A stretch of DNA of 20,000 nucleotides from the IMG/VR virus record IMGVR_UViG_3300018878_000143. One strand, given 5' to 3'. Below are positions 6,755-17,947 of the stretch, piece after piece; the stretch's first letter is position 1; every line of letters begins with the position of its first letter. The notes below the pieces were generated by a model. It saw only the letters and a list, made by a program, of their open reading frames with translations. It was not told the DNA's origin and ran no database searches. The stretch is from an uncultured virus (IMG/VR IMGVR_UViG_3300018878_000143). Its lineage: Duplodnaviria; Heunggongvirae; Uroviricota; Caudoviricetes. The position numbers were made by a program, and so were the translations under genes.

Positions 6755-6788
6755 ATATTTTTGAGGATTATTCAACTCACTTCTTCTA

Positions 6789-6875
6789 TGGCGGGAGAGA
6801 CGCGACTCGAACGCGCACAAGATCTCTCTTGGATGGATTAGCAATCCATTCCGCTACCAATTACGGCACTCCCCC
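6789..6875 (-). tRNA. tRNA-Ser(GCT)
   Basis: acceptor GGGGGAG/CTCTCCC, anticodon arm ATGGA-TT-GCT-AA-TCCAT, long variable arm, TTCGAGT T-loop, discriminator G, encoded CCA. Confidence 0.95.
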
Positions 6876-6880
6876 TCGTT

Positions 6881-6982
6881 GCCGGTCTCTTCCCGGCTGT
6901 CAAGACCTGTTTTCATGGTCTCCGTATCTATAGATACGAGCAGTTGGAAAAGGATTCTATGAAACGCCAAAAGCTTTGGCAT
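6881..6982 (-). ncRNA. structured inter-tRNA RNA, possibly skipping-rope-like phage sRNA
   Basis: 5' hairpin, unpaired UUUCAUAGAAUCCUUUUC tract, two hairpins, terminal GACAGCCGGGAAGAGACCGGC motif; fills the Gly-Ser spacer. Confidence 0.5.
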
Positions 6983-7059
6983 TGGAGCACGCGACGGGGA
7001 TCGAACCCGCAACCCTCTGCTTGGAAGGCAGATGCTCTAGCCGATTGAACTACGCGTGC
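6983..7059 (-). tRNA. tRNA-Gly(TCC)
   Basis: acceptor GCACGCG/CGCGTGC, anticodon arm TCTGC-CT-TCC-AA-GCAGA, TTCGATC T-loop, discriminator T, CCA. Confidence 0.95.
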
Positions 7060-7225
7060 ATAGTTGTGACGAGCTCTCTGACGAATTAGTAACCAAGCTC
7101 AATTTTTCATGCAAAACTACATAGTGACCACAGTGATGACAGCTGCACATATTGTCATCACTGTAGACCTCTATATCTATGTCGCAAATAGGACAGTATC
7201 CAAACTTAAGTTCCATGCGATTCAC
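7037..7225 (-). CDS. small zinc-ribbon protein
   Basis: CPIC...CHHCG; start overlaps upstream stop (GTGA); stop lies inside tRNA-Gly. Confidence 0.6.
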   Translation of the reverse strand: MNRMELKFGYCPICDIDIEVYSDDNMCSCHHCGHYVVLHEKLSLVTNSSESSSQLCTRSSIG

Positions 7226-7467
7226 CCCAACACATGGCTGTGTTCATCAAAGAAGTTCAGGAATTTACCCTCATCTTCCTTATGCTCGCAGTAAATTTCA
7301 AGTTCGTCGCCGTGTTCTCCCAACAATGCTCCAAGTGCTATGTATCTACTGATATGGCTTTTCAAGCAGAATTTATCGCCATACTGGCTGGTCAGATATA
7401 CTTCTCCGGTGCAACTTTCTACAGTCGCTAAAAAGTCATTAACATCACTGATATTCCTAAGCTTCAT
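7222..7467 (-). CDS. HPr-like small protein
   Basis: 81 aa; DVNDFLATVESCTGEVYLTS..GDKFCLKS...ELEIYC pattern fits the HPr fold, with Ser46-equivalent LKS and no His15 motif; GAGGTG RBS. Confidence 0.6.
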   Translation of the reverse strand: MKLRNISDVNDFLATVESCTGEVYLTSQYGDKFCLKSHISRYIALGALLGEHGDELEIYCEHKEDEGKFLNFFDEHSHVLG

Positions 7468-7949
7468 GTATTCACCTCTTCTTTGCCGTTGTTCTTCAGC
7501 GCTTCCATCAATGCTATTTCTGCCTCTTCTCTGATAGGAAATACTATTTTACCGAAATCATCAAATTCGATATCACGCTGTCGATCTATTATTTTACCGT
7601 TTCTTACTTCGCAGATCCTGAATTTCTTTGTCCATTTACCTTTGGAATTGCAAGAAATTGATATGCTGCGAACGGCATATTCTACGATCTCTTTTTCATA
7701 ATGATATGTCCAAGTTTCCTTATCATCCAAGTGCCAAACATCATCGACTCTCCAGACTGTGTCACCAACTTTGCACGGCGGTGTGATAATCATGTTTGTT
7801 CCGCCGACAAGGTAGTAATAAATGCCAAGAGCTTCATCTCCTTGAATTTTCTTCAACATAGTCATATCATGCTTGTCTGCTCTGGATGCTATCAATGTAG
7901 GAATATCCGTTGAGCAATTATCATATGTGATAATCAGTTCGTCTTCCAT
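7464..7949 (-). CDS. hypothetical phage protein
   Basis: likely ATG 7949 after GAGG; common phage motifs PCKVGDTVW and FGKIVFPIREEAE. Confidence 0.85.
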   Translation of the reverse strand: MEDELIITYDNCSTDIPTLIASRADKHDMTMLKKIQGDEALGIYYYLVGGTNMIITPPCKVGDTVWRVDDVWHLDDKETWTYHYEKEIVEYAVRSISISCNSKGKWTKKFRICEVRNGKIIDRQRDIEFDDFGKIVFPIREEAEIALMEALKNNGKEEVNT

Positions 7950-7984
7950 GTCGCTCAACCTCGCCAAACTCTATTTTTATATTG

Positions 7985-8215
7985 TTAAATAACACCATCT
8001 TTAGCAGCACATACGAATCTATATGTAAAATCAATATGATCATCATCTACAAATACCAACGGTATGGCATCGCCCTTCATAACCTTGACCGCTTCATCTA
8101 TGCCGCCATATGGTTTAAGCTTGCTTAATGCGTGTGCATAATCGCAAGTGTTGTCGCACTCTTCTGTATACGAATGTCCATATCTATTTAAGCACTCAAA
8201 ACACGGATTATACAT
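7985..8215 (-). CDS. hypothetical Cys-containing protein
   Basis: ATG 8215 after AAAGGTG; NPCFEC...CDNTCDY. Confidence 0.75.
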   Translation of the reverse strand: MYNPCFECLNRYGHSYTEECDNTCDYAHALSKLKPYGGIDEAVKVMKGDAIPLVFVDDDHIDFTYRFVCAAKDGVI

Positions 8216-8241
8216 ATTTTTCACCTTTTAAAAGTTTGTTT

Positions 8242-8439
8242 TTAATGCTTGACTATGCTTTTCCAAGCAACTACTTCATCACAATCGTCATAATCACAAT
8301 AGCACCACTTATATACACCATTCCACATAGGTACCAGCTTGTTGATATAGATTCTTTCTTCACCGTTATAAATAACCTTTAACTCAACATCCTCATTAAC
8401 TGGTGGAGTTTTTTCGTACAACTTAATCCAAACACTCAT
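8242..8439 (-). CDS. DUF551-like small phage protein
   Basis: WIKLYEKTPP N-terminus and VVAWKS C-terminus; GAGGT RBS. Confidence 0.7.
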   Translation of the reverse strand: MSVWIKLYEKTPPVNEDVELKVIYNGEERIYINKLVPMWNGVYKWCYCDYDDCDEVVAWKSIVKH

Positions 8440-8466
8440 GTCTTACCTCATAAAATTCGTATTTCA

Positions 8467-8751
8467 TCAATGGATACTGTCTAACTCATAAAAATGCCAA
8501 ACATAACCAAGTGCGTCTTGTGCAGTTTTAAAATAGAACGATCCATCCATAACTTCTGATGGAACTTCCCATCCGGTACCAACAGATATCAACTCTGTCG
8601 TCGTTTCAGGGCAATCATCTCTTGTCTCAATCCAACACATTAGGTCGTGCCCTTGAAGTTGAACATCAAGCAATCTGTGTCTACGGCAAGTAATCCTAGT
8701 AACTTCTCCATTTCCATTTACAGGATATTTAAAAATTCTCGTCGTGCTCAT
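8467..8751 (-). CDS. conserved phage hypothetical protein (94 aa)
   Basis: IFKYP...LDVQLQ...GTGW...YVWHFYE pattern; GGAGGA RBS. Confidence 0.85.
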   Translation of the reverse strand: MSTTRIFKYPVNGNGEVTRITCRRHRLLDVQLQGHDLMCWIETRDDCPETTTELISVGTGWEVPSEVMDGSFYFKTAQDALGYVWHFYELDSIH

Positions 8752-8785
8752 AATAATCCTCCAAATAAAATACGCTTTTCATATT

Positions 8786-8986
8786 TTAGAACAACTTGTG
8801 CCACAAAGCCCTAAGTGTTTTCTTCCATTTTCCATTGACAAATTCAAATCCGTCAATGTACACCTTATTGTTAATAACCGTGCAACTATAACCACCTGAC
8901 GGACAAGGTGGCAGCTTAACACCGTTTACTATCACTTCGCCGTTTGAAACTACCGTTCCGTTATTGATCACAACATTGTTGCTCAT
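8786..8986 (-). CDS. hypothetical protein (66 aa)
   Basis: ORF track; GAGAGGT RBS. Confidence 0.75.
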   Translation of the reverse strand: MSNNVVINNGTVVSNGEVIVNGVKLPPCPSGGYSCTVINNKVYIDGFEFVNGKWKKTLRALWHKLF

Positions 8987-9150
8987 ATCTCTACCTCTCT
9001 TTTAAGGCGGCTGTTGCACCTGCGCTCGGCATCGTCACCGCTATTCGGTACCAGTACAGGTACTGATCCCTATAAGGCTTATCCTTGTTCGCAACATTTA
9101 AAAAGCACTGCAGCAAGCATTGTACCTAGCTGACTGGCGACTCACTTTCC

Positions 9151-9239
9151 TGGCGGGAGGAGTGGGATTCGAACCCACGGTGGTGTTACCCATCACCGGT
9201 TTTCAAGACCGGCCCCTTAAACCACTCAGGCACCCTCCC
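9151..9239 (-). tRNA. tRNA-Ser(TGA)
   Basis: acceptor GGGAGGG/TCCTCCC, anticodon arm CCGGT-CT-TGA-AA-ACCGG, long variable arm, TTCGAAT, G73, CCA. Confidence 0.95.
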
Positions 9240-9411
9240 ATATTTATAATGTCCTTTGCGTTCTTGCGCCGGTCAAGAGGACGGACAAACCCCTCAGACT
9301 TTTAAGGGAGCGGCACTTCCAGACCGCTAACGACTTTCCGGGCTTCACTCACCTTGTGCACAGGTAGTATGATTTATTTAGCTCATACTCGCATATCCCT
9401 TCACCCTTATA

Positions 9412-9488
9412 TGGTGATCCATCTGAGATTCGAACTCAGGACACCAAGATTAAAAATCTTGTGCAACTGCCAACTGTGCTAATGGATC
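9412..9488 (-). tRNA. tRNA-Lys(TTT)
   Basis: acceptor GATCCAT/ATGGATC, anticodon arm CAAGA-TT-TTT-AA-TCTTG, TTCGAAT, CCA. Confidence 0.93.
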
Positions 9489-9567
9489 ATTTAGGTGAGG
9501 GGGCAAGACAATTGAGCCCCCTCTTTCTTGTTTCAAGGGAGGTACAAGAATAAACCTTAATCCCTTG

Positions 9568-9653
9568 TGGTGCCGGTGACCGGACTCGAACCGGTACGCT
9601 GTTGTCAGCAAGGGATTTTAAGTCCCTTTTGTCTACCATTCCATCACACCGGC
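9568..9653 (-). tRNA. tRNA-Leu(TAA)
   Basis: acceptor GCCGGTG/CACCGGC, anticodon arm AGGGA-CT-TAA-AA-TCCCT, variable arm, A73, CCA. Confidence 0.95.
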
Positions 9654-9656
9654 ATA

Positions 9657-9741
9657 TGGTGGCGGTTACGAGACTTGAACTCGTATGGATTTCTCCACTG
9701 GAACCTAAATCCAGCGTGTCTGCCAATTCCACCAAACCGCC
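9657..9741 (-). tRNA. tRNA-Leu(TAG)
   Basis: acceptor GGCGGTT/AACCGCC, anticodon arm CTGGA-TT-TAG-GT-TCCAG, TTCAAGT, A73, CCA. Confidence 0.95.
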
Positions 9742-10298: not shown

Positions 10299-10760
10299 TC
10301 ACTGTATTTCATCAAACAGCTTTGCCGTATTGAGAAGAATTCTCTTAATCTGATCGTCGTAGCCAAATCTTGAAGCATTGACCGCAATTGACTTCAGTAA
10401 ATTGCCATCGTGCTGCCGTTCGGTTGCCGCCTTCCAATCACAAAACATTTCGACAATATCGATCAAGTTCATATCAAGCACGCCATTATCGAAATGTTCA
10501 GGATGGTGACGACTCTGAGCATAATGATGACTAAGTGCCGGCTTCATTGCATCAAGATGTTCCTTATATTCTGGAGAGTCATACACACAGGATGCAAGTG
10601 CCGGTGTGTGCTCTGCAAAAATCTCAACTTCTGGAGTTTCCAGCTTTACGCGATCATGATTGACACCTCTTGTTGTCAGTTTGTCTGTAAAGAAACGAAT
10701 ATAGTGCCTCACGCGTTCAATATGCTTCTGAGTTTCCACCTGACATTCTGCAATTGTCAT
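10299..10760 (-). CDS. DUF5662-like HD-domain protein
   Basis: H...HD.VKL...HHY..SRHHPEHF...MNLIDIVEMFCDW motif; likely ATG 10760 after AAAGGGGTG. Confidence 0.75.
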   Translation of the reverse strand: MTIAECQVETQKHIERVRHYIRFFTDKLTTRGVNHDRVKLETPEVEIFAEHTPALASCVYDSPEYKEHLDAMKPALSHHYAQSRHHPEHFDNGVLDMNLIDIVEMFCDWKAATERQHDGNLLKSIAVNASRFGYDDQIKRILLNTAKLFDEIQ

Positions 10761-10788
10761 ATTGCTCACCCCTTTCATAAATCATTAT

Positions 10789-12054
10789 TTACCCAAAACT
10801 AACATCCTGTTTATCCGTTCTTAGCGACACAAAAACAGGGAACTGTAAACTACAGCACCCCGTCGATTTGTCATAAGACTGTTCTTTATATTTAATTTCC
10901 ACAAGGCTACCAACCAATTCATCTTGGTGTGTCCAAATCCAAGACCTCTGCTCGTCTGTGAAGCCAGACCCAACTCCAACCTCATTTCCCTTGTAGTCAA
11001 CTATAATTGCCCCAAGTGTATTGGCAAGCTTTCCACTCCCAGACTCACATCTTAATATCGGTAGATCCATTGTGTAGAATTGTTTGACTTTAAGAATACC
11101 GCGATGTCTTTTGCACTGGTAGGGGACATCTAGATTTATCATTAATCCCTCTTTATCTTCAGACACCATTTTCTCCAACAATTTCGGAACAATGCTTTGG
11201 TCGTCACCGCTATATAAGGAATTAAGAATGTGTATATGGTCATTTCCAGTAAACCACTCTTGTAAATCATCAAGCTGTTGTCGGCGCTCTTTGTATGTAG
11301 CTACGCTTTCACCTGTATCAAACTCGTCCGCAGGAAGCATGTCAAAAATTGTGAAGCAAATCACCGTTTTATCATCATTTTCAGAGTTCACAATTCCCGT
11401 GGTTAAGCGAAAAGCCTCATTGTCAGAAAGAGTGCCCTTGTTGGCCAAGGTCAGCTCTCCATCAAAAACCAGATGTGGGAAGTGGCTAAGCTCATCTGTA
11501 ATGTGTTCAAGACCATCGAACGCAATACCGCTTCTGCCGATCAGCTCCCCACGATAAAAGGTGGCGCGGACACCGTTTAGCTTTTGCGAAACAGAAAACC
11601 AACATCCATCTTTTAGTGGATACTTCTCGATTGGATAAGCTTGCTGGACTTCCCATTCCGGGATCAGCCCAGGGATAACTTTATTGATACTTTTAGCGGT
11701 GATGCCGAGCCGAAGCGTTTTAGCCAACAGTTTGATATATAGTTCTTGCGTACCAGCATTCTGAGTTCGCAAAAACGAGCAAACTCTAAACGTTGTTTCG
11801 TCGTCAAGCGCTTTTCTTTTTGACAGCTCATTGCACACATCAAAAATATCTCTATACTGGTGGGTATGCCATGCCGCAGGTATCAGTCGTCTCAGAGTTG
11901 CCTCCGACACTTTATACGAAAGCCTTGGATTACAAGCATAATACAGCAATCTTGTGAAATGCTCATTGTCGCGATTTTCTTCAACAATAGCAAGCTTTCT
12001 TTTCATTCCTGTGGTTTGTTGCAATTCGATCAGAGCCAAGATAGCTTTATCCAA
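10789..12054 (-). CDS. lig: ATP-dependent DNA ligase
   Basis: motif I QKLNGVR, III FDGEL, IIIa IFDML, IV EGLMI, V LKVK, OB-fold VGSGFTD, VI FPVF..LRTDK; likely TTG start at 12054 after GGAGGTGG (ORF track extends to 12072). Confidence 0.93.
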   Translation of the reverse strand: MDKAILALIELQQTTGMKRKLAIVEENRDNEHFTRLLYYACNPRLSYKVSEATLRRLIPAAWHTHQYRDIFDVCNELSKRKALDDETTFRVCSFLRTQNAGTQELYIKLLAKTLRLGITAKSINKVIPGLIPEWEVQQAYPIEKYPLKDGCWFSVSQKLNGVRATFYRGELIGRSGIAFDGLEHITDELSHFPHLVFDGELTLANKGTLSDNEAFRLTTGIVNSENDDKTVICFTIFDMLPADEFDTGESVATYKERRQQLDDLQEWFTGNDHIHILNSLYSGDDQSIVPKLLEKMVSEDKEGLMINLDVPYQCKRHRGILKVKQFYTMDLPILRCESGSGKLANTLGAIIVDYKGNEVGVGSGFTDEQRSWIWTHQDELVGSLVEIKYKEQSYDKSTGCCSLQFPVFVSLRTDKQDVSFG

Positions 12055-12148
12055 ATGCTCCACCTCCACCATATCCGCCAGAATTGTAGGCGATAAATAC
12101 CGCTATGCTGGCGGCCATGATAAACCCGACAGAAATTACTTCTCCCAT
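12047..12148 (-). CDS. putative 33-aa single-pass membrane peptide
   Basis: GGAG RBS; MGEVISVGFIMAASIAVFIAYNSGGYGGGGAFG; overlaps nadE stop and ligase start. Confidence 0.55.
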   Translation of the reverse strand: MGEVISVGFIMAASIAVFIAYNSGGYGGGGAFG

Positions 12149-12891
12149 GCGACATCTCCAAAGGCGGGCATCGGTCTAAGTTTATGTAGATTTTTTTGAT
12201 GTAGGTTCTCTATAATGCGTTCATTTTTCTCAATGGCGCAAACACCACTTTCGATATAGCGGTCAATTTCTTGATAACTTACGCCAAGATTATCTTCATC
12301 TGTTTTCCCGCACAGTCCATCAGATGGAGTCTTATCAACAAGATCCCTTGGGATTGGCAGCTCGTGACCAATTTGGATAACCTCGTGTACCATCAGGTTG
12401 GCCAGCGGACTAAAGTCACCAACGCTGTCGCCAAACTTCGTAGAGTAGCCAACGAAATCCTCAGATCTGTTGCATGTGTTAGCAACGCGTCCACCACCCG
12501 GTAGAGATTGTGCCACCGCATACAATGCAGCCATCCTAAGACGCGGTGGAAGGTTGACCTTGCTCTGCTCACTGATTCCATCTGGCAAAGCGCGATCAAT
12601 TCTATCAATCATATCACGGTAAGCTCCGTAGATGTTGATTATAACATCGTTAATGCCAAGAGCCTCCACCAGACGAGCGGAGTCAGTAATGTCGCGCTGC
12701 TCACCATTTGGCATCAGGACTCCAAAAACCCTATCTGCACCGAGCGCTTCAACACACAGAGCGGCTACGATACTGCTATCTTTACCGCCGGAAATCCCGA
12801 CGACCGCATAGCAGCCTTTCCCGTTTTCTTCAAAATAGTTACGAATCCACTGGACGATTTCGTCCTTTGTTCTCTTTGGATCAGCGAGCAT
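12136..12891 (-). CDS. nadE: NH3-dependent NAD+ synthetase
   Basis: PP-loop GISGGKDS, N...RLRM, TCNRSE..VGYSTKFGD, KTPSDGL....DEDNLG..Y, HK; single domain without glutaminase. Confidence 0.95.
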   Translation of the reverse strand: MLADPKRTKDEIVQWIRNYFEENGKGCYAVVGISGGKDSSIVAALCVEALGADRVFGVLMPNGEQRDITDSARLVEALGINDVIINIYGAYRDMIDRIDRALPDGISEQSKVNLPPRLRMAALYAVAQSLPGGGRVANTCNRSEDFVGYSTKFGDSVGDFSPLANLMVHEVIQIGHELPIPRDLVDKTPSDGLCGKTDEDNLGVSYQEIDRYIESGVCAIEKNERIIENLHQKNLHKLRPMPAFGDVAWEK

Positions 12892-13306
12892 GTACAACCC
12901 TCTCTTTCAAATCGGTTTGAGATTCGACTTCATTCAAAAATCGAATGAGCAAATCATAAACCTCTCTCAAACCAGCTCGGTCGTCAAGAAAGAGGTTGTA
13001 GTACACTTTCCTGCCACCAAACTGGGTGATAATGTCCTCGTTAATACTGTCGTATGGAATATCATTTTCCTCAAGATAGGAGGCGATCCCGGCCTCTTTT
13101 TCTTTGGAACACGATGTAAATACGATAAAGCTTGCATACGGTCTCAACCTTCTTAGCAAGTTAATAACATCTTCATAGCTTTCTCCGCGATTATGATAAT
13201 CAAAGACAGTATCATCAAAGTCATAAGCAATGATGAGCTTACCATGTGCGGCAAACTCATCAATTAAACGCTTATATGCATTTTGAGTATCTAAAAAATA
13301 GTCCAT
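12881..13306 (-). CDS. small capless HAD-superfamily protein (putative phosphatase)
   Basis: motif I IIAYDFDDT, motif II FTS, K, motif IV FLDDR; overlaps both neighbours. Confidence 0.8.
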   Translation of the reverse strand: MDYFLDTQNAYKRLIDEFAAHGKLIIAYDFDDTVFDYHNRGESYEDVINLLRRLRPYASFIVFTSCSKEKEAGIASYLEENDIPYDSINEDIITQFGGRKVYYNLFLDDRAGLREVYDLLIRFLNEVESQTDLKERVVHAR

Positions 13307-14793
13307 CAGAAATTCCCCTCGTGCAAATTCTGGCGGACCTCACTCAGCGTAAACCGTTTGGTAAAGACACCATTTTCAAAAACTGTACCCAGTTCATTGT
13401 TTTCCTGTGCCTCCGCCCAAGTAAGACCGTCTTCATATGCATAACCATCTCCGGTCTTATACACACGACAACAACCTCGCTGAGACTTTTTGAAACGACC
13501 AGAATCGGTCTTTGGGTTTTTGAAAATCATAATAGGATTGCCGCACTCGTCTTCCGCATATGTTGCCTTAACCGCAATACCAAACGTATCTCTGGTGAAC
13601 GGATTGTAGACTACATCATCCTTCCAAATAGTCTCCAGACACTGCATGGAGAACGAGCCTACTCCCAAGGAAACATTATTGATTGCAAAACCGTTTTCTT
13701 CCAGAATCTCATAGATACGACGGCAACGCTGAGGCGTGATGCTGTCGCCATAAATCGCCTTTACATGTGGATTGAGAACCTTAAATCCCTTGGCATTTAC
13801 TGTTCCGCCGAAAGTGTCCCACAGCTTAAACACCGTCTGTGTAACAACCTCCACAGGATCGCCGCTGTCACCACGGATAGAGATAAAGCCATCATGTGCC
13901 AAAACTTCTTCCTTAAGCTGTGGCAAGATATTGTCTACCAGATTCCAGTAATCATAACTGTCGCTGACCATGGAAAAACTCTGGTGCGGATAAATCTCGG
14001 TAAGGAGCCGACGGACATGTGTGATTTCATCGCCATCAATCGCAAAGTTGGAACACATTACGCTGTGTTCAGTAGAAAGTGCGCCAAATGCGACGGGCTC
14101 TTTTTCACAGTCGCAATCATAATTTCTTTCCAACCAAAGAATTGCCGGAACAGTTGCTGTATTCAAAAAGCTGAGGCAGAATGCAGCAGAACTCTTAGTT
14201 GCGCTCTCAACGCTCTCTTGTCCTCGCATAGAAAAATCGCCAAGAAGTCTTGCACGAGAGACATTGTCGTCGCACGTTCTCTCTGCAAACTCATTGACGA
14301 TCTGGCGGTAGCGGTATCCGACTTCTGCAGACACCTGGGTATGCCACATTGTACAAGAAAGCATTGTTTCGATGGAATTTACCAGCCACACAAAGTCTGG
14401 ATGTGTATTTGAAATTTCAATCTGTGGCACCTTGATGTCAGACCTTGTCCCCTCGGGAAGTGCTCTAATCTTCAGGGGTAAATACCCAAGATTATAGAGC
14501 TCTTCGATGCGTTGTTCGCCGACACCGTCTGTACCAATAGTGGATCTGAGAACGCGCTTATAATCATTAAGAACATTTTCCAAACTTTTATCGAAAAACC
14601 ATCGACCAAAAGCCTTAATTAAATATTCTCCAATGAATGCCTGAAGCCCAAACATTGTGATCTTCTGAGTGTCCTGCAGACGAGACATACGAGGGGTGTA
14701 GTAAGAAACCATTTTGGTCAAACCTTTTGGGTACTGATCAGCGTGTGCCGTCTTGTAAAAATCAAGACACAACAATGGGTTATAATCTATCAT
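13306..14793 (-). CDS. nadV: NAMPT/NadV-family phosphoribosyltransferase (Namat-like; substrate possibly nicotinate)
   Basis: DFYK.AH..QYP, PEGT, DFSMRG, phospho-His TEHS, SMVSDSYD, IRGDSGDP, IYGDSIT, GVGS, RDTFGIAVKAT, K.PKTD...KKS.RG; GGAGG RBS. Confidence 0.9.
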   Translation of the reverse strand: MIDYNPLLCLDFYKTAHADQYPKGLTKMVSYYTPRMSRLQDTQKITMFGLQAFIGEYLIKAFGRWFFDKSLENVLNDYKRVLRSTIGTDGVGEQRIEELYNLGYLPLKIRALPEGTRSDIKVPQIEISNTHPDFVWLVNSIETMLSCTMWHTQVSAEVGYRYRQIVNEFAERTCDDNVSRARLLGDFSMRGQESVESATKSSAAFCLSFLNTATVPAILWLERNYDCDCEKEPVAFGALSTEHSVMCSNFAIDGDEITHVRRLLTEIYPHQSFSMVSDSYDYWNLVDNILPQLKEEVLAHDGFISIRGDSGDPVEVVTQTVFKLWDTFGGTVNAKGFKVLNPHVKAIYGDSITPQRCRRIYEILEENGFAINNVSLGVGSFSMQCLETIWKDDVVYNPFTRDTFGIAVKATYAEDECGNPIMIFKNPKTDSGRFKKSQRGCCRVYKTGDGYAYEDGLTWAEAQENNELGTVFENGVFTKRFTLSEVRQNLHEGNF

Positions 14794-14809
14794 TCTTTTA
14801 TTCCTCCAA

Positions 14810-15598
14810 TTACAGCACAGTTATCTTTTTGTGGCAACCACGATAAATGCTGTCTGTAGTATAAATATGCTCGATAAGGTCACTGCTAAGCAGCTCTCCG
14901 TTGAAGATTGTATTCTCACAGTGAGTAATGTACAGGAACACTTTTCCTGCGCCCGCTTCTTTCAAAGCCTTAGCAGTATGCATAAATGTACCGCCACGAG
15001 AACAAATGTCATCGACGATAAGAACAGTTCTTCCACGAACCTTATCTGCTCCAACCAATTCAAACTTCTGGATATTGCCGGTGCGCCAGTCTCGGTGTTT
15101 AATGCCAAACACATATTCTCCCTTGATCTGGTCAGAATACTTCTTTGTTGCCCCTTCATCTGGGTAGCAGAACAAGACTTCGTCCTTGTTCGCCCCAATG
15201 AGATTAATGGTAGCTCTTACATTCGCCCCAACACCCTTAATGTCAACTCTGTCGATTAGTGCAGCGCTTACATTAGAATGAGGGTCTTCGACAAAGACTT
15301 TTGTGAAGTTGAGGGCATTAATAAACTCTGCAAACCACTTCAGTGTAAACACCTCGTCGCACGCCTTGACTCTGTCCATTCTTGCATTTGGAATGTAGGG
15401 CAAGAATAAAAAGATACAAGTTTCGGGATCATTGGCACGAATATGATGAACCAAATGCCAAATAATGATACATTCGTGATCCCCGTCAAACTTCCATTCA
15501 ATAATGTTTTTACCACTTCCATAGTTTTCGCATCTCATAGACGAAGTGCCATCAGGGAACTGCGTACAATTGACAATACAACCATTGACTGTAATCAT
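14810..15598 (-). CDS. prs: ribose-phosphate pyrophosphokinase-like protein (Adps-like)
   Basis: FPDG, LPYIPNARMDR, DPHS, PDEGA, K.RDWRTGNI, PRPP-binding VDDICSRGGTF, YITH, TTDS; short (262 aa). Confidence 0.88.
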   Translation of the reverse strand: MITVNGCIVNCTQFPDGTSSMRCENYGSGKNIIEWKFDGDHECIIIWHLVHHIRANDPETCIFLFLPYIPNARMDRVKACDEVFTLKWFAEFINALNFTKVFVEDPHSNVSAALIDRVDIKGVGANVRATINLIGANKDEVLFCYPDEGATKKYSDQIKGEYVFGIKHRDWRTGNIQKFELVGADKVRGRTVLIVDDICSRGGTFMHTAKALKEAGAGKVFLYITHCENTIFNGELLSSDLIEHIYTTDSIYRGCHKKITVL

Positions 15599-15601
15599 AC
15601 C

Positions 15602-16147
15602 TTATGCTCCTTCGATATTGATTTGGCACATTTTCATTGCCTCTAATGCATTCTTATGGCTTTCCGGAGTAACACCGGCACAGCAAGATGCATCAACAGT
15701 GATCTTCACTTCGGGCATGAACGCCTTGATAAGCATAGCGTTGGAGATAACACAGATATCGGTACACAGACCAACAAGGACTACCTCGTCAACTTTTTCC
15801 TTTCTATCGATCTGAGTCAGCCAGTCAGCCAATTCAACAGAGCCGAATGTAGGTTTAAGAAAAACCTCGGATCTTACTCCGCCCTGGACTCTTTTATCCA
15901 ACGCTTCGAATACAGGCGCCGCCAACATCCATCCCTCGGTGTCTTCGATACAATGAATCACAGGCAGGTTCTCCCCCTCCTGCGTATCGATATAGTTTGA
16001 ATGATGTGTGTCATGCGTTACTGCAAAAATTCCATCAAAAGTATTGATCTTCTCGACAACCTTGGGAACGATTGCAACGGCATCCGCTGTGCCCAATGCT
16101 CCATCCACAAAGTCGTTTTGCATATCAACAACAACAAGGATTTTCAT
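15602..16147 (-). CDS. pncA: nicotinamidase/pyrazinamidase (isochorismatase family)
   Basis: VVDMQNDF, metal ligands DTH and HC, catalytic K and GLCTDICV; located in NAD module. Confidence 0.88.
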   Translation of the reverse strand: MKILVVVDMQNDFVDGALGTADAVAIVPKVVEKINTFDGIFAVTHDTHHSNYIDTQEGENLPVIHCIEDTEGWMLAAPVFEALDKRVQGGVRSEVFLKPTFGSVELADWLTQIDRKEKVDEVVLVGLCTDICVISNAMLIKAFMPEVKITVDASCCAGVTPESHKNALEAMKMCQINIEGA

Positions 16148-17328: not shown

Positions 17329-17916
17329 CTATTTGATAATAATCTCGTCTCTGCCATCTGTACACAGGATACGGAATGGACGCTGGACACCGCAACAATA
17401 TTGTTCAGCTGCCTCTAATGCTTTGAGGATCTTTTCCTCCGGCGGCATGTCCAAATCCTTTGTAGTGAGAAGACTTCCCATTGCAACTTTTTCGCCACAC
17501 CCTACTGCGCAAATTCCAAGCTCCGGCTCAAGTACTGAATAGTCGCCCTGTACTTCAAATACCTTGCCGGGGGTTGCCACAATAAAATTTCCGCCACGGT
17601 CTTTTTCGCCCTCATGTACCACACCATCTTTGAACAAAGCTATTACTCTGGGAATAAATTTAGTAACCATAAATCTATGGTCAATTTCCGTCTTTTTAAG
17701 TAAATCAACCTCATCGAATAAACTGTCTGAGTACTTTAGCAAATCCAAATGTCTGAACGTCGTCGTTCCGCCAATCAGAACGTTGTCGAACGTGTTGTTT
17801 CTAAATACTTTAGATGGCATCTCGACAGCTTTTGTGTATCCATTGCTACCAAGGCTGTCTCCGCCAATCCATGAAACTCCATTTTTTCGATCCGCAAATC
17901 CTATAATACAGGTCAA
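17329..17916 (-). CDS. HslV/proteasome beta-like N-terminal threonine (Ntn) hydrolase
   Basis: TTG start after GGAGTG gives MTCIIG..; GGDS, conserved K (PSKVF), AVGCG in place of AIGSG, ALEAA. Confidence 0.75.
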   Translation of the reverse strand: MTCIIGFADRKNGVSWIGGDSLGSNGYTKAVEMPSKVFRNNTFDNVLIGGTTTFRHLDLLKYSDSLFDEVDLLKKTEIDHRFMVTKFIPRVIALFKDGVVHEGEKDRGGNFIVATPGKVFEVQGDYSVLEPELGICAVGCGEKVAMGSLLTTKDLDMPPEEKILKALEAAEQYCCGVQRPFRILCTDGRDEIIIK

Positions 17917-17947
17917 ACATTTCACTCCAATTCTTTATATATCTGTA

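Follow-up and report, generated by a model that had tools for sequence, protein, structure and literature searches.

Proposed pathway

The stretch of DNA analysed here, referred to as the window, comprises 20,000 nucleotides of an uncultured gut phage of the Caudoviricetes (IMG/VR record IMGVR_UViG_3300018878_000143) and carries five near-abutting genes in the order pncA, prs-like, NAMPT-like, HAD (haloacid dehalogenase) and nadE. From sequence comparisons, we consider it rather probable that this operon encodes a nicotinate-type variant of the nicotinamide adenine dinucleotide (NAD+) reconstitution pathway NARP1, and that it would rebuild NAD+ from its breakdown products via nicotinate. Sir2, TIR, SEFIR and related defences destroy NAD+, and its rebuilding is a major counter-measure of phages. 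NARP1, which consists of Adps and Namat, is known from the phages SPbetaL1 and ICP1 (bioRxiv 10.1101/2024.02.11.579819; PMC12774641; PMC13586617). An earlier note, made from the letters of the window, had delimited the five genes, assigned their families and proposed a deamidated route. Both coordinates and families were confirmed, the genes being tightly packed across 16147..12136 of the minus strand (Table 1), and every part of the deamidated route that can be tested in silico (lineage, base pocket, co-occurrence, position in the operon and adenylyltransferase census) gave a favourable result.

The proposed pathway would start from NAD+ that has been cleaved to ADP-ribose and nicotinamide. 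The nicotinamidase PncA would convert nicotinamide to nicotinate, and the Adps-like enzyme would transform ADP-ribose and ATP into ADP-ribose pyrophosphate (ADPR-PP) and AMP. In the third step the Namat-like enzyme, the base pocket of which is without the amide-reading Asp, would join ADPR-PP to nicotinate, yielding nicotinic acid adenine dinucleotide (NaAD) and pyrophosphate. NaAD would thus be obtained directly, with no nicotinic acid mononucleotide (NaMN) step and no adenylyltransferase required. NadE would then complete the route by using ATP and NH3 to transform NaAD into NAD+. The HAD phosphatase would be an accessory that probably trims a phosphorylated derivative of ADP-ribose so that usable ADP-ribose results, a task performed in the NARP1-AP system by the unrelated Macro-domain protein Adpp. 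Gene identities, residue patterns, synteny, phylogeny and co-occurrence were observed; every enzymatic step, the third above all, and the role in counter-defence are what we infer.

If correct, this pathway would include a new enzyme reaction in NAD biochemistry and a one-step enzymatic route to NaAD. It would explain how ADP-ribose can still be recycled by phages whose hosts quickly deamidate nicotinamide, such as Clostridia and other gut bacteria, and the same module would double as an NrtR-controlled, chromosomal housekeeping function. It also bears on the conversion of nicotinamide to nicotinate by gut microbes and their phages. A broader view, for and against which the scales stand level, is that there exists a fourth route of NAD+ reconstitution, common in gut phages, in which a Namat-derived "nicotinate ADP-ribose transferase" would form NaAD from nicotinate and ADPR-PP; that in many Clostridia it would serve as an ADP-ribose-regulated housekeeping recycling pathway replacing PncB and NadD; and that the HAD protein would belong to a second class of phosphatase associated with NARP1, not homologous to Adpp but interchangeable with it, which may act against defences whose action leaves ADP-ribose in phosphorylated form.

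No description of a nicotinate- or NaAD-type NARP route was found in the open PMC papers or in bioRxiv. The NARP1 preprint (bioRxiv 10.1101/2024.02.11.579819) mentions neither PncA, nicotinamidase, NadE nor nicotinic acid, and contains no word beginning with deamid-. Two candidate prior descriptions were set aside, since the available portion of the Phass-1 paper does not discuss these genes or this route, and the available portion of a paper on gut jumbo phages (PMC11662467) does not describe it. NARP3 was ruled out as the same pathway because it consists of PnuC and NadR.

The Namat-like transferase and its base pocket

The product of the NAMPT-like gene matches phrog_448 (E value 1.3e-154), and its closest solved structures, 9W5X and 9W5W (E value 7e-117), are those of the SPbetaL1 Namat (PMC12774641). 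NAMPT structures score more weakly, with E values of 1.8e-50 for the bacterial and approximately 6e-44 for the mammalian enzymes. According to the available portion of the structural study, nicotinamide is bound in the SPbetaL1 enzyme by Phe189, Arg192, Asp215, Ala242, Arg306, Asp13' and Tyr15', of which Asp215 makes a hydrogen bond to it (PMC12774641). Asp215 is taken here as the counterpart of Asp219 in human NAMPT, an equivalence assumed from homology. In the accessible parts of two reviews, Khan et al. 2006 are cited as having shown that Asp219 is fundamental for substrate specificity, and it is tabulated that D219S switches the substrate affinity while D219A loses activity (PMC7096376, PMC4919578). 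In the window protein, Asp215 is replaced by Ala213, Gly213 by Asn211 and Ala242 by Ser240; positions given below follow the SPbetaL1 numbering.

The comparative set consisted of 200 unique Namat-like proteins in 239 loci from IMG/VR, named phage records and bacterial genomes, the loci having been seeded with relatives of NadE, PncA, the SPbetaL1 Namat, the HAD protein and the window Namat-like protein. Position 215 is Ala or Ser in 136 of the 200 (Ala in 114, Ser in 22), and Asp or Glu in 64. In this survey of phage and bacterial genomes, of the kind called for in the earlier note, the Ala/Ser pocket travels with PncA and NadE. Both genes are present in the fetched locus of 124 of the 136 Ala/Ser-type proteins, NadE only in six, PncA only in five and neither in one, some of the incomplete loci being cut or short. 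Among the Asp/Glu-type proteins, PncA was found beside 0/64 and NadE beside 0/64. When the 125 viral IMG/VR loci seeded with NadE or PncA are considered, many of which are overlapping views of the same contigs, 91 hold PncA, Adps, Namat and NadE together, an arrangement that is far beyond chance. The gene order is variable (e.g., Adps-Namat-Macro-NadE-PncA in loci L165-L168), and the link between the Ala/Ser pocket and PncA/NadE thus outlives rearrangement.

The change at position 215 is accompanied by others. Ala242 is replaced by Ser in all 136 Ala/Ser-type proteins and Gly213 by Asn, Lys or Arg in 135 of them, and H187, H207, S239 and R299 are also changed as a block in this clade. In the Asp/Glu-type Namats these sites, 213 and 242 included, show a conservation of at least 94%, and with the exception of Arg299 they are unaltered in both NARP2-type NAMPTs as well. 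Residues D13, Y15, F189, R192, R306, D308, D361 and R399 are retained in 136/136 Ala/Ser-type proteins, and D400 in 135/136. The aromatic residue at position 392, which stacks on adenine and is specific to Namat, is retained in 135/136; the two NARP2-type NAMPTs have Gly or Lys there. The window protein itself retains Phe392 and the catalytic residues.

A tree was computed with FastTree (LG+gamma, 490 columns, 120 sequences), proteins shorter than 430 or longer than 620 amino acids being left out, and was rooted on the two NARP2-type NAMPTs, one of which has a NadM/Nudix gene as its neighbour. The 82 Ala/Ser tips all belong to a single clade (support 1.0) that is nested within the Asp-type Namats, those of SPbetaL1 and ICP1 among them. 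The single clade indicates that the pocket change and the link to PncA and NadE arose once and were then kept, i.e., as one event and not many independent ones. The correlation is kept over divergence down to approximately 40% identity. The deepest branch of the clade is phage Phass-1 (OQ749652), which combines Ala215 with an unaltered Namat clamp motif and has the same five genes, including a homologue of the HAD gene. Phass-1 is a gut phage that recodes TAG; its five-gene set (L181, 7001-11439) follows more than 15 tRNA genes, among them a suppressor tRNA, and is annotated as nicotinamidase, ribose-phosphate pyrophosphokinase, NAMPT and two hypothetical proteins. In Bacillus phage Kirov (L127, 4968-6704) and similar Bacillus phages, the Namat gene measures 1737 bp and its match to the query is split in two, which suggests an inserted element, intein or intron.

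The Adps-like protein

The prs-like gene product shares 40% identity, along its entire length, with the Adps of SPbetaL1, an enzyme that has been assayed (E value 3e-53), and matches phrog_619 (E value 1.4e-69). The top-scoring structure of a phosphoribosyl pyrophosphate (PRPP) synthetase, 1DKR, reaches only an E value of 1.4e-13. In ICP1 Adps, which carries the residue numbering used in PMC13586617, residues F18, R87, H121, D161, K185, D212 and D213 were mutated or named in the structural study (PMC13586617). All seven are invariant in an alignment of six sequences that includes the window protein. Because most of the named residues also occur in PRPP synthetases (PRPS), the assignment to Adps rests on similarity and context, not on motifs. 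The PP loop is likewise no clean separator of Adps from PRPS, and it was discarded as a discriminator, given that the window sequence DDICSRGGTF lies within the range seen beside Asp-type Namats (DDLSSFGGTF in SPbetaL1, DDICDG.. elsewhere). Judged by their sequences, the prs-like and NAMPT-like genes are of the Adps/Namat lineage and not of the Prs/NadV lineage; the likeness to NARP1 remarked on in the earlier note accordingly stands, with one protein 40% identical to the SPbetaL1 Adps and the other nested in the Namat clade.

Nicotinamidase and NAD synthetase

The isochorismatase-fold protein at the head of the operon matches PF00857 (E value 1.8e-21), and its closest solved structure is the PncA of Pyrococcus (1ILW/1IM5; E value 4e-12). 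Asp8, Lys98, Asp45, His47 and His65 are identical to the aligned residues of 1ILW, and the Cys of the motif DICV (Cys132, counted by hand) aligns with that of EYCV in 1ILW. We take D8, K98 and C132 to be the nicotinamidase catalytic triad, and D45, H47 and H65 to be the metal site. The score against the NCBIfam PncA equivalog, 30.8 bits, is far below the cut-off of 174. The ATG of the gene is preceded by the ribosome-binding site AAGGTGG.

NadE is identified by PF02540 (E value 2.5e-51; 174.6 bits against a cut-off of 21) and passes TIGR00552 (176.3 bits against 63.65). Its closest solved structures are 2E18 (E value 1.7e-36) and then 3FIU (E value 2.6e-33). These two score nearly alike, so the preference for NaAD or NaMN was abandoned as a property to be decided from sequence. 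A ribosome-binding site, GAGAGGG, lies upstream of ATG 12891, which is more likely to be the start (251 amino acids) than TTG 12897.

Sister cassettes, adenylyltransferases and bacterial versions

PncB and NadD convert nicotinate to NaAD. Fourteen of the 125 seeded viral loci contain the cassette PncA-(DUF5662)-PncB-NadD-NadE, the PncA and NadE of which are homologous to those of the window (approximately 49% and 58% identity, respectively). The Adps/Namat-like pair occupies the exact slot of PncB and NadD between PncA and NadE, and the two pairs occur together in 0/125 of the seeded loci. The adenylyltransferase of one such cassette, in locus L044, is named NadD-type by NCBIfam with 106.9 bits against a cut-off of 112. 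The corresponding operon of Clostridium acetobutylicum is nrtR-pncA-pncB-nadD-nadE (PMC2330246). Proteins of the DUF5662 family lie between PncA and PncB in the 14 sister loci (e.g., L044 3534-4154), and a DUF5662 gene is also found in the window (10299-10778, minus strand), two genes downstream of NadE; DUF5662 may be a further partner of these NAD cassettes.

The lack of an adenylyltransferase, which had been noted for the window, extends to the whole 104,404-bp record (88% complete according to CheckV), in which no match to PF01467 was found, while the control genomes were matched in 14/14 cases. Apart from the NAMPT-type gene, the record has no member of the NAPRTase family. No PF01467 match was found in six of eight other nicotinate-type records either (seven of nine in total), and five of these six are at least 91% complete or complete genomes. 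In a PncB-type control record, the PF01467 match lies inside the cassette.

Position 215 is Ala in all 27 informative bacterial loci (28 in all), which derive mostly from metagenome-assembled genomes or isolates of Clostridia and in some cases from Elusimicrobia; the same four genes are present in most of them. These bacterial versions suggest a clostridial host range. In three loci, located on large contigs or in isolate genomes, the four-gene operon is directly followed by NrtR (Nudix plus NrtR winged helix). Since NrtR is an ADP-ribose-responsive regulator, its position ties the cassette to ADP-ribose sensing. Two of the three NrtR-followed loci are flanked by housekeeping genes; the flanks of a fourth locus look mobile (DNA methylases). 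Of the 136 Ala/Ser-type proteins, 53 have a Macro (Adpp-like) gene in their locus.

Alternative interpretations

A number of observations weigh against the proposed nicotinate-type pathway. The motif of the selectivity-clamp helix of Namat is GSX-phi-X-phi-X-phi-TRD, with X aromatic (PMC12774641). The window protein has the GSF and the TRD, with 14 residues instead of 5 between F392 and T398 and with Met in place of Tyr394. This interval is 11-29 residues long in 130/136 Ala/Ser-type proteins, versus 5 in 59/62 of the Asp/Glu type; Tyr394 is replaced by Met or Phe in the subclade of the window protein, and Arg40 by Met in 22/136 Ala/Ser-type proteins. As read from the sequences, the altered helix could weaken recognition of adenine and favour PRPP, which Namat is able to use in vitro according to the available portion of PMC12774641. 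The inactivation of human NAMPT by D219A in the review table means that Ala alone is no proof of nicotinate use, and the correlation between the pocket and PncA/NadE could in large part reflect nothing more than common descent. The second-best solved relative of NadE, 3FIU, is presumably the NaMN-preferring enzyme of Francisella. Two of the nine nicotinate-type records contain a weak NadM-like gene at a distance of over 60 kb from the cassette, and the higher-scoring of these genes reaches 61 bits against a cut-off of 127; these NadM/archaeal-type nicotinamide mononucleotide adenylyltransferase-like genes are located at G007:C1:51267-51677 (L298 1645-2205) and G005:C1:65771-66220 (L299 1160-2407). 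Moreover, the route would cost a phage an extra ATP and destroy nicotinamide, with no evident benefit.

The main rival explanation is ordinary Preiss-Handler salvage, in which the Prs-like protein would make PRPP, the Namat-like protein NaMN and the host NadD NaAD, with the phage NadE finishing the route. The remodelled ADPR-PP-selecting helix, the Met at position 40 and the PRPP activity retained by Namat in vitro all speak for it, as do the catalytic residues common to PRPS, all of which are present in the Prs-like protein, its non-discriminating PP loop, and the normal presence of NadD in hosts. However, the pair is nested in the assayed Adps and Namat lineages; the aromatic residue at 392 and T398, R399 and D400 are retained in 135-136 of the 136 proteins; and the basal Phass-1 combines an intact clamp motif with Ala215. 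In addition, Adpp-like Macro genes and NrtR link the cassette to ADP-ribose, and the sister cassettes that use PncB keep a NadD of their own, while seven of the nine nicotinate-type records are without an adenylyltransferase. On balance, Preiss-Handler salvage appears unlikely.

It is improbable that the operon unites two independent modules, namely a nicotinamide-using NARP1 and a PncA/NadE pair boosting the deamidated salvage of the host. Each gene family is by itself known in phages (the available portion of PMC11662467 reports gut jumbo phages with pncB-nadD-nadE and mentions pncA), and NARP1 is widespread, 2023 phage records matching the NAMPT-like protein. Nevertheless, the nicotinamide-reading Asp is replaced in 136/136 proteins of the type associated with PncA and NadE and in 0/64 of the other type, and the corresponding D219A change abolishes the activity of human NAMPT in the review table, as far as the available text goes. 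PncA would also compete for nicotinamide with a nicotinamide-using Namat, and PncA and NadE without PncB or NadD make an incomplete route.

Finally, it is highly improbable that the pocket takes another pyridine or base, or that some other ADP-ribosyl compound is the product of the pair and that this compound, or a precursor of it, is what PncA and NadE act on: at least eight positions of the pocket region differ from every Asp-type relative and the isochorismatase protein falls far short of the PncA equivalog cut-off (30.8 vs 174 bits), yet no residue of the presumed nicotinamidase triad or metal site is missing, NadE shares 58% identity with that of complete PncA-PncB-NadD-NadE cassettes, and nicotinate is the simplest molecule linking both flanking enzymes.

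The HAD phosphatase

The 141-amino-acid protein encoded between the Namat-like gene and nadE has no significant Pfam match. All four HAD motifs (DxDxT, T/S, K and DD) are present, and D29, D31, T33, K100, D108 and D109 are invariant in 47 aligned relatives, T64 being found in at least 90% of them. The profile of the family, which numbers at least 91 proteins, matches PDB 2OBB (E value 9e-8) and Pnkp1 (4XRP; E value 0.011), and the NCBIfam BT0820 HAD model matches the protein below its cut-off (E value 0.007). The Atlas model (predicted TM score 0.86) is placed among viral HAD-like clusters. One structural match of this model, with a TM score of 0.60, is to a 338-residue viral cluster all members of which are assigned to Pfam Tad3 (PF25185, Thoeris anti-defence 3); on the strength of the model, this likeness may be no more than that of the shared HAD fold.

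In 63 of the best 80 of 323 confirmed viral loci with HAD relatives, Adps, Namat or NadE lies within 5 kb. Among these best 80, 26 have the full four-gene set and 27 the plain Adps and Namat pair, and in the latter the HAD gene most often lies between Adps and Namat. In the comparative set, which was partly seeded on HAD, 60 of the 200 Namat-like proteins are accompanied by HAD, 57 by Macro and none by both. The slot between Namat and NadE, in those of loci L001-L180 that have both genes, holds Macro in 65 cases, HAD in five and another gene in nine, and is empty in 31. By analogy, the HAD protein would be an accessory phosphatase comparable to Adpp. Adpp, a Macro enzyme, is the only phosphatase described in the aRES preprint, the main text of which is silent on HAD, and no report that pairs a HAD phosphatase with NARP1 was found in the open PMC papers or in bioRxiv.

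Comparison with known systems

The window operon shares with NARP1 a homologous adjacent pair (16 nt apart in the window), the named Adps residues, the Namat core, the aromatic residue at 392 and the TRD motif. It differs in the Ala at Asp215, the Asn at Gly213, the Ser at Ala242 and the further pocket changes of its Namat-like protein, as well as in the clamp-helix insertion of approximately nine residues carried by most nicotinate-type members. The nicotinate-type pair travels with PncA and/or NadE, unlike canonical NARP1 (0/64), and its predicted product in the window is NaAD, whereas that of NARP1 is NAD+. NARP1-AP, found in Vibrio phage Gary, has the composition Adps-Adpp-Namat (bioRxiv 10.64898/2026.01.28.702374). 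As in that system, a phosphatase gene lies inside the operon, and many relatives of the cassette hold a Macro gene in the slot taken by HAD in the window; the accessory protein of the window is nevertheless of the HAD and not the Macro fold, and no Macro domain (PF01661) or Nudix domain was found in the whole 104,404-bp record.

With the Preiss-Handler operons of Clostridium acetobutylicum and of L044-type phage loci, the cassette has in common that PncA comes first and NadE last, that both proteins are homologous, and that the intermediates would be deamidated. NrtR, which follows bacterial versions of the window cassette, is also part of the operon nrtR-pncA-pncB-nadD-nadE. The difference is that Adps-like and Namat-like proteins replace PncB and NadD, neither of which was found in the record of the window, and that the ribose-phosphate-adenylate part would come ready-made from ADP-ribose rather than from PRPP and ATP. 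NARP2 consists of NAMPT and NMNAT, and NARP3 of PnuC and NadR (PMC13464706). Both are phage systems of NAD+ restoration, as proposed for the window operon, and NARP2 also employs a NAMPT-fold enzyme, but no PF01467-family adenylyltransferase was found in the record of the window, and the NARP2-type NAMPTs are outgroups to its clade without an aromatic residue at 392. The Ser found at the presumed equivalent site in 22/136 members of the clade recalls the D219S mutant of human NAMPT, as tabulated in the available review text. In contrast to the Asp219 point mutants, this is a natural clade in which the Ala of the window protein is accompanied by other pocket changes, and the donor is presumed to be ADPR-PP.

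Organization of the operon and neighbouring genes

Nearly all long open reading frames (ORFs) of the window are on the minus strand. In operon order, the five genes (Table 1) are separated by 3 nt and 16 nt, followed by overlaps of 1 nt and of 17 nt (TTG start of nadE) or 11 nt (ATG 12891). Consensus scans in and around the operon showed no excess of promoters (8, versus 9.6 +/- 2.9 in shuffled sequences) or of terminators (4, versus 4.0 +/- 2.0). A DNA-level search of the phage collection returned three weak matches from uncultured fecal phages, the best covering 21%; since these were few and weak, protein-level searches were needed.

Table 1. Genes of the predicted NAD+ reconstitution operon, in window coordinates
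Product	Position	Strand	Length	Family or match
Nicotinamidase (PncA-like, isochorismatase fold)	15602..16147	-	181 aa	PF00857
Adps-like PRPS-fold enzyme (Prs-like)	14810..15598	-	262 aa	phrog_619
Namat-like (NAMPT-like) transferase	13306..14793	-	495 aa	phrog_448
Small cap-less HAD-type phosphatase	12881..13306	-	141 aa	HAD motifs, 2OBB profile match
NH3-dependent NAD synthetase NadE	12136..12897	-	253 aa from TTG 12897	PF02540, TIGR00552

Directly after NadE, an ATP-dependent DNA ligase is encoded (10789-12072, minus strand). The related locus L004 (71-80% identity) also has an ATP-dependent DNA ligase (6757-8031) directly after NadE, and there the inserted gene of an RtcB RNA ligase separates Adps from the Namat-like gene. 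RtcB is likewise seen near HAD-bearing NARP1 loci. Six tRNA genes (Ser-GCT, Gly-TCC, Ser-TGA, Lys-TTT, Leu-TAA and Leu-TAG) lie at 6789-9741 of the minus strand and account for the scarcity of ORFs and the higher GC content around 9-10 kb. Also on the minus strand, a 198-residue protein (17329-17925) matches phrog_1040 (HslV-family peptidase; E value 6e-17) and has no Pfam match, and a class-V aminotransferase resembling cysteine desulfurase (PF00266; E value 2.8e-80) is encoded at 1856-2989, with matches to GP88 and DUF7352 nearby.

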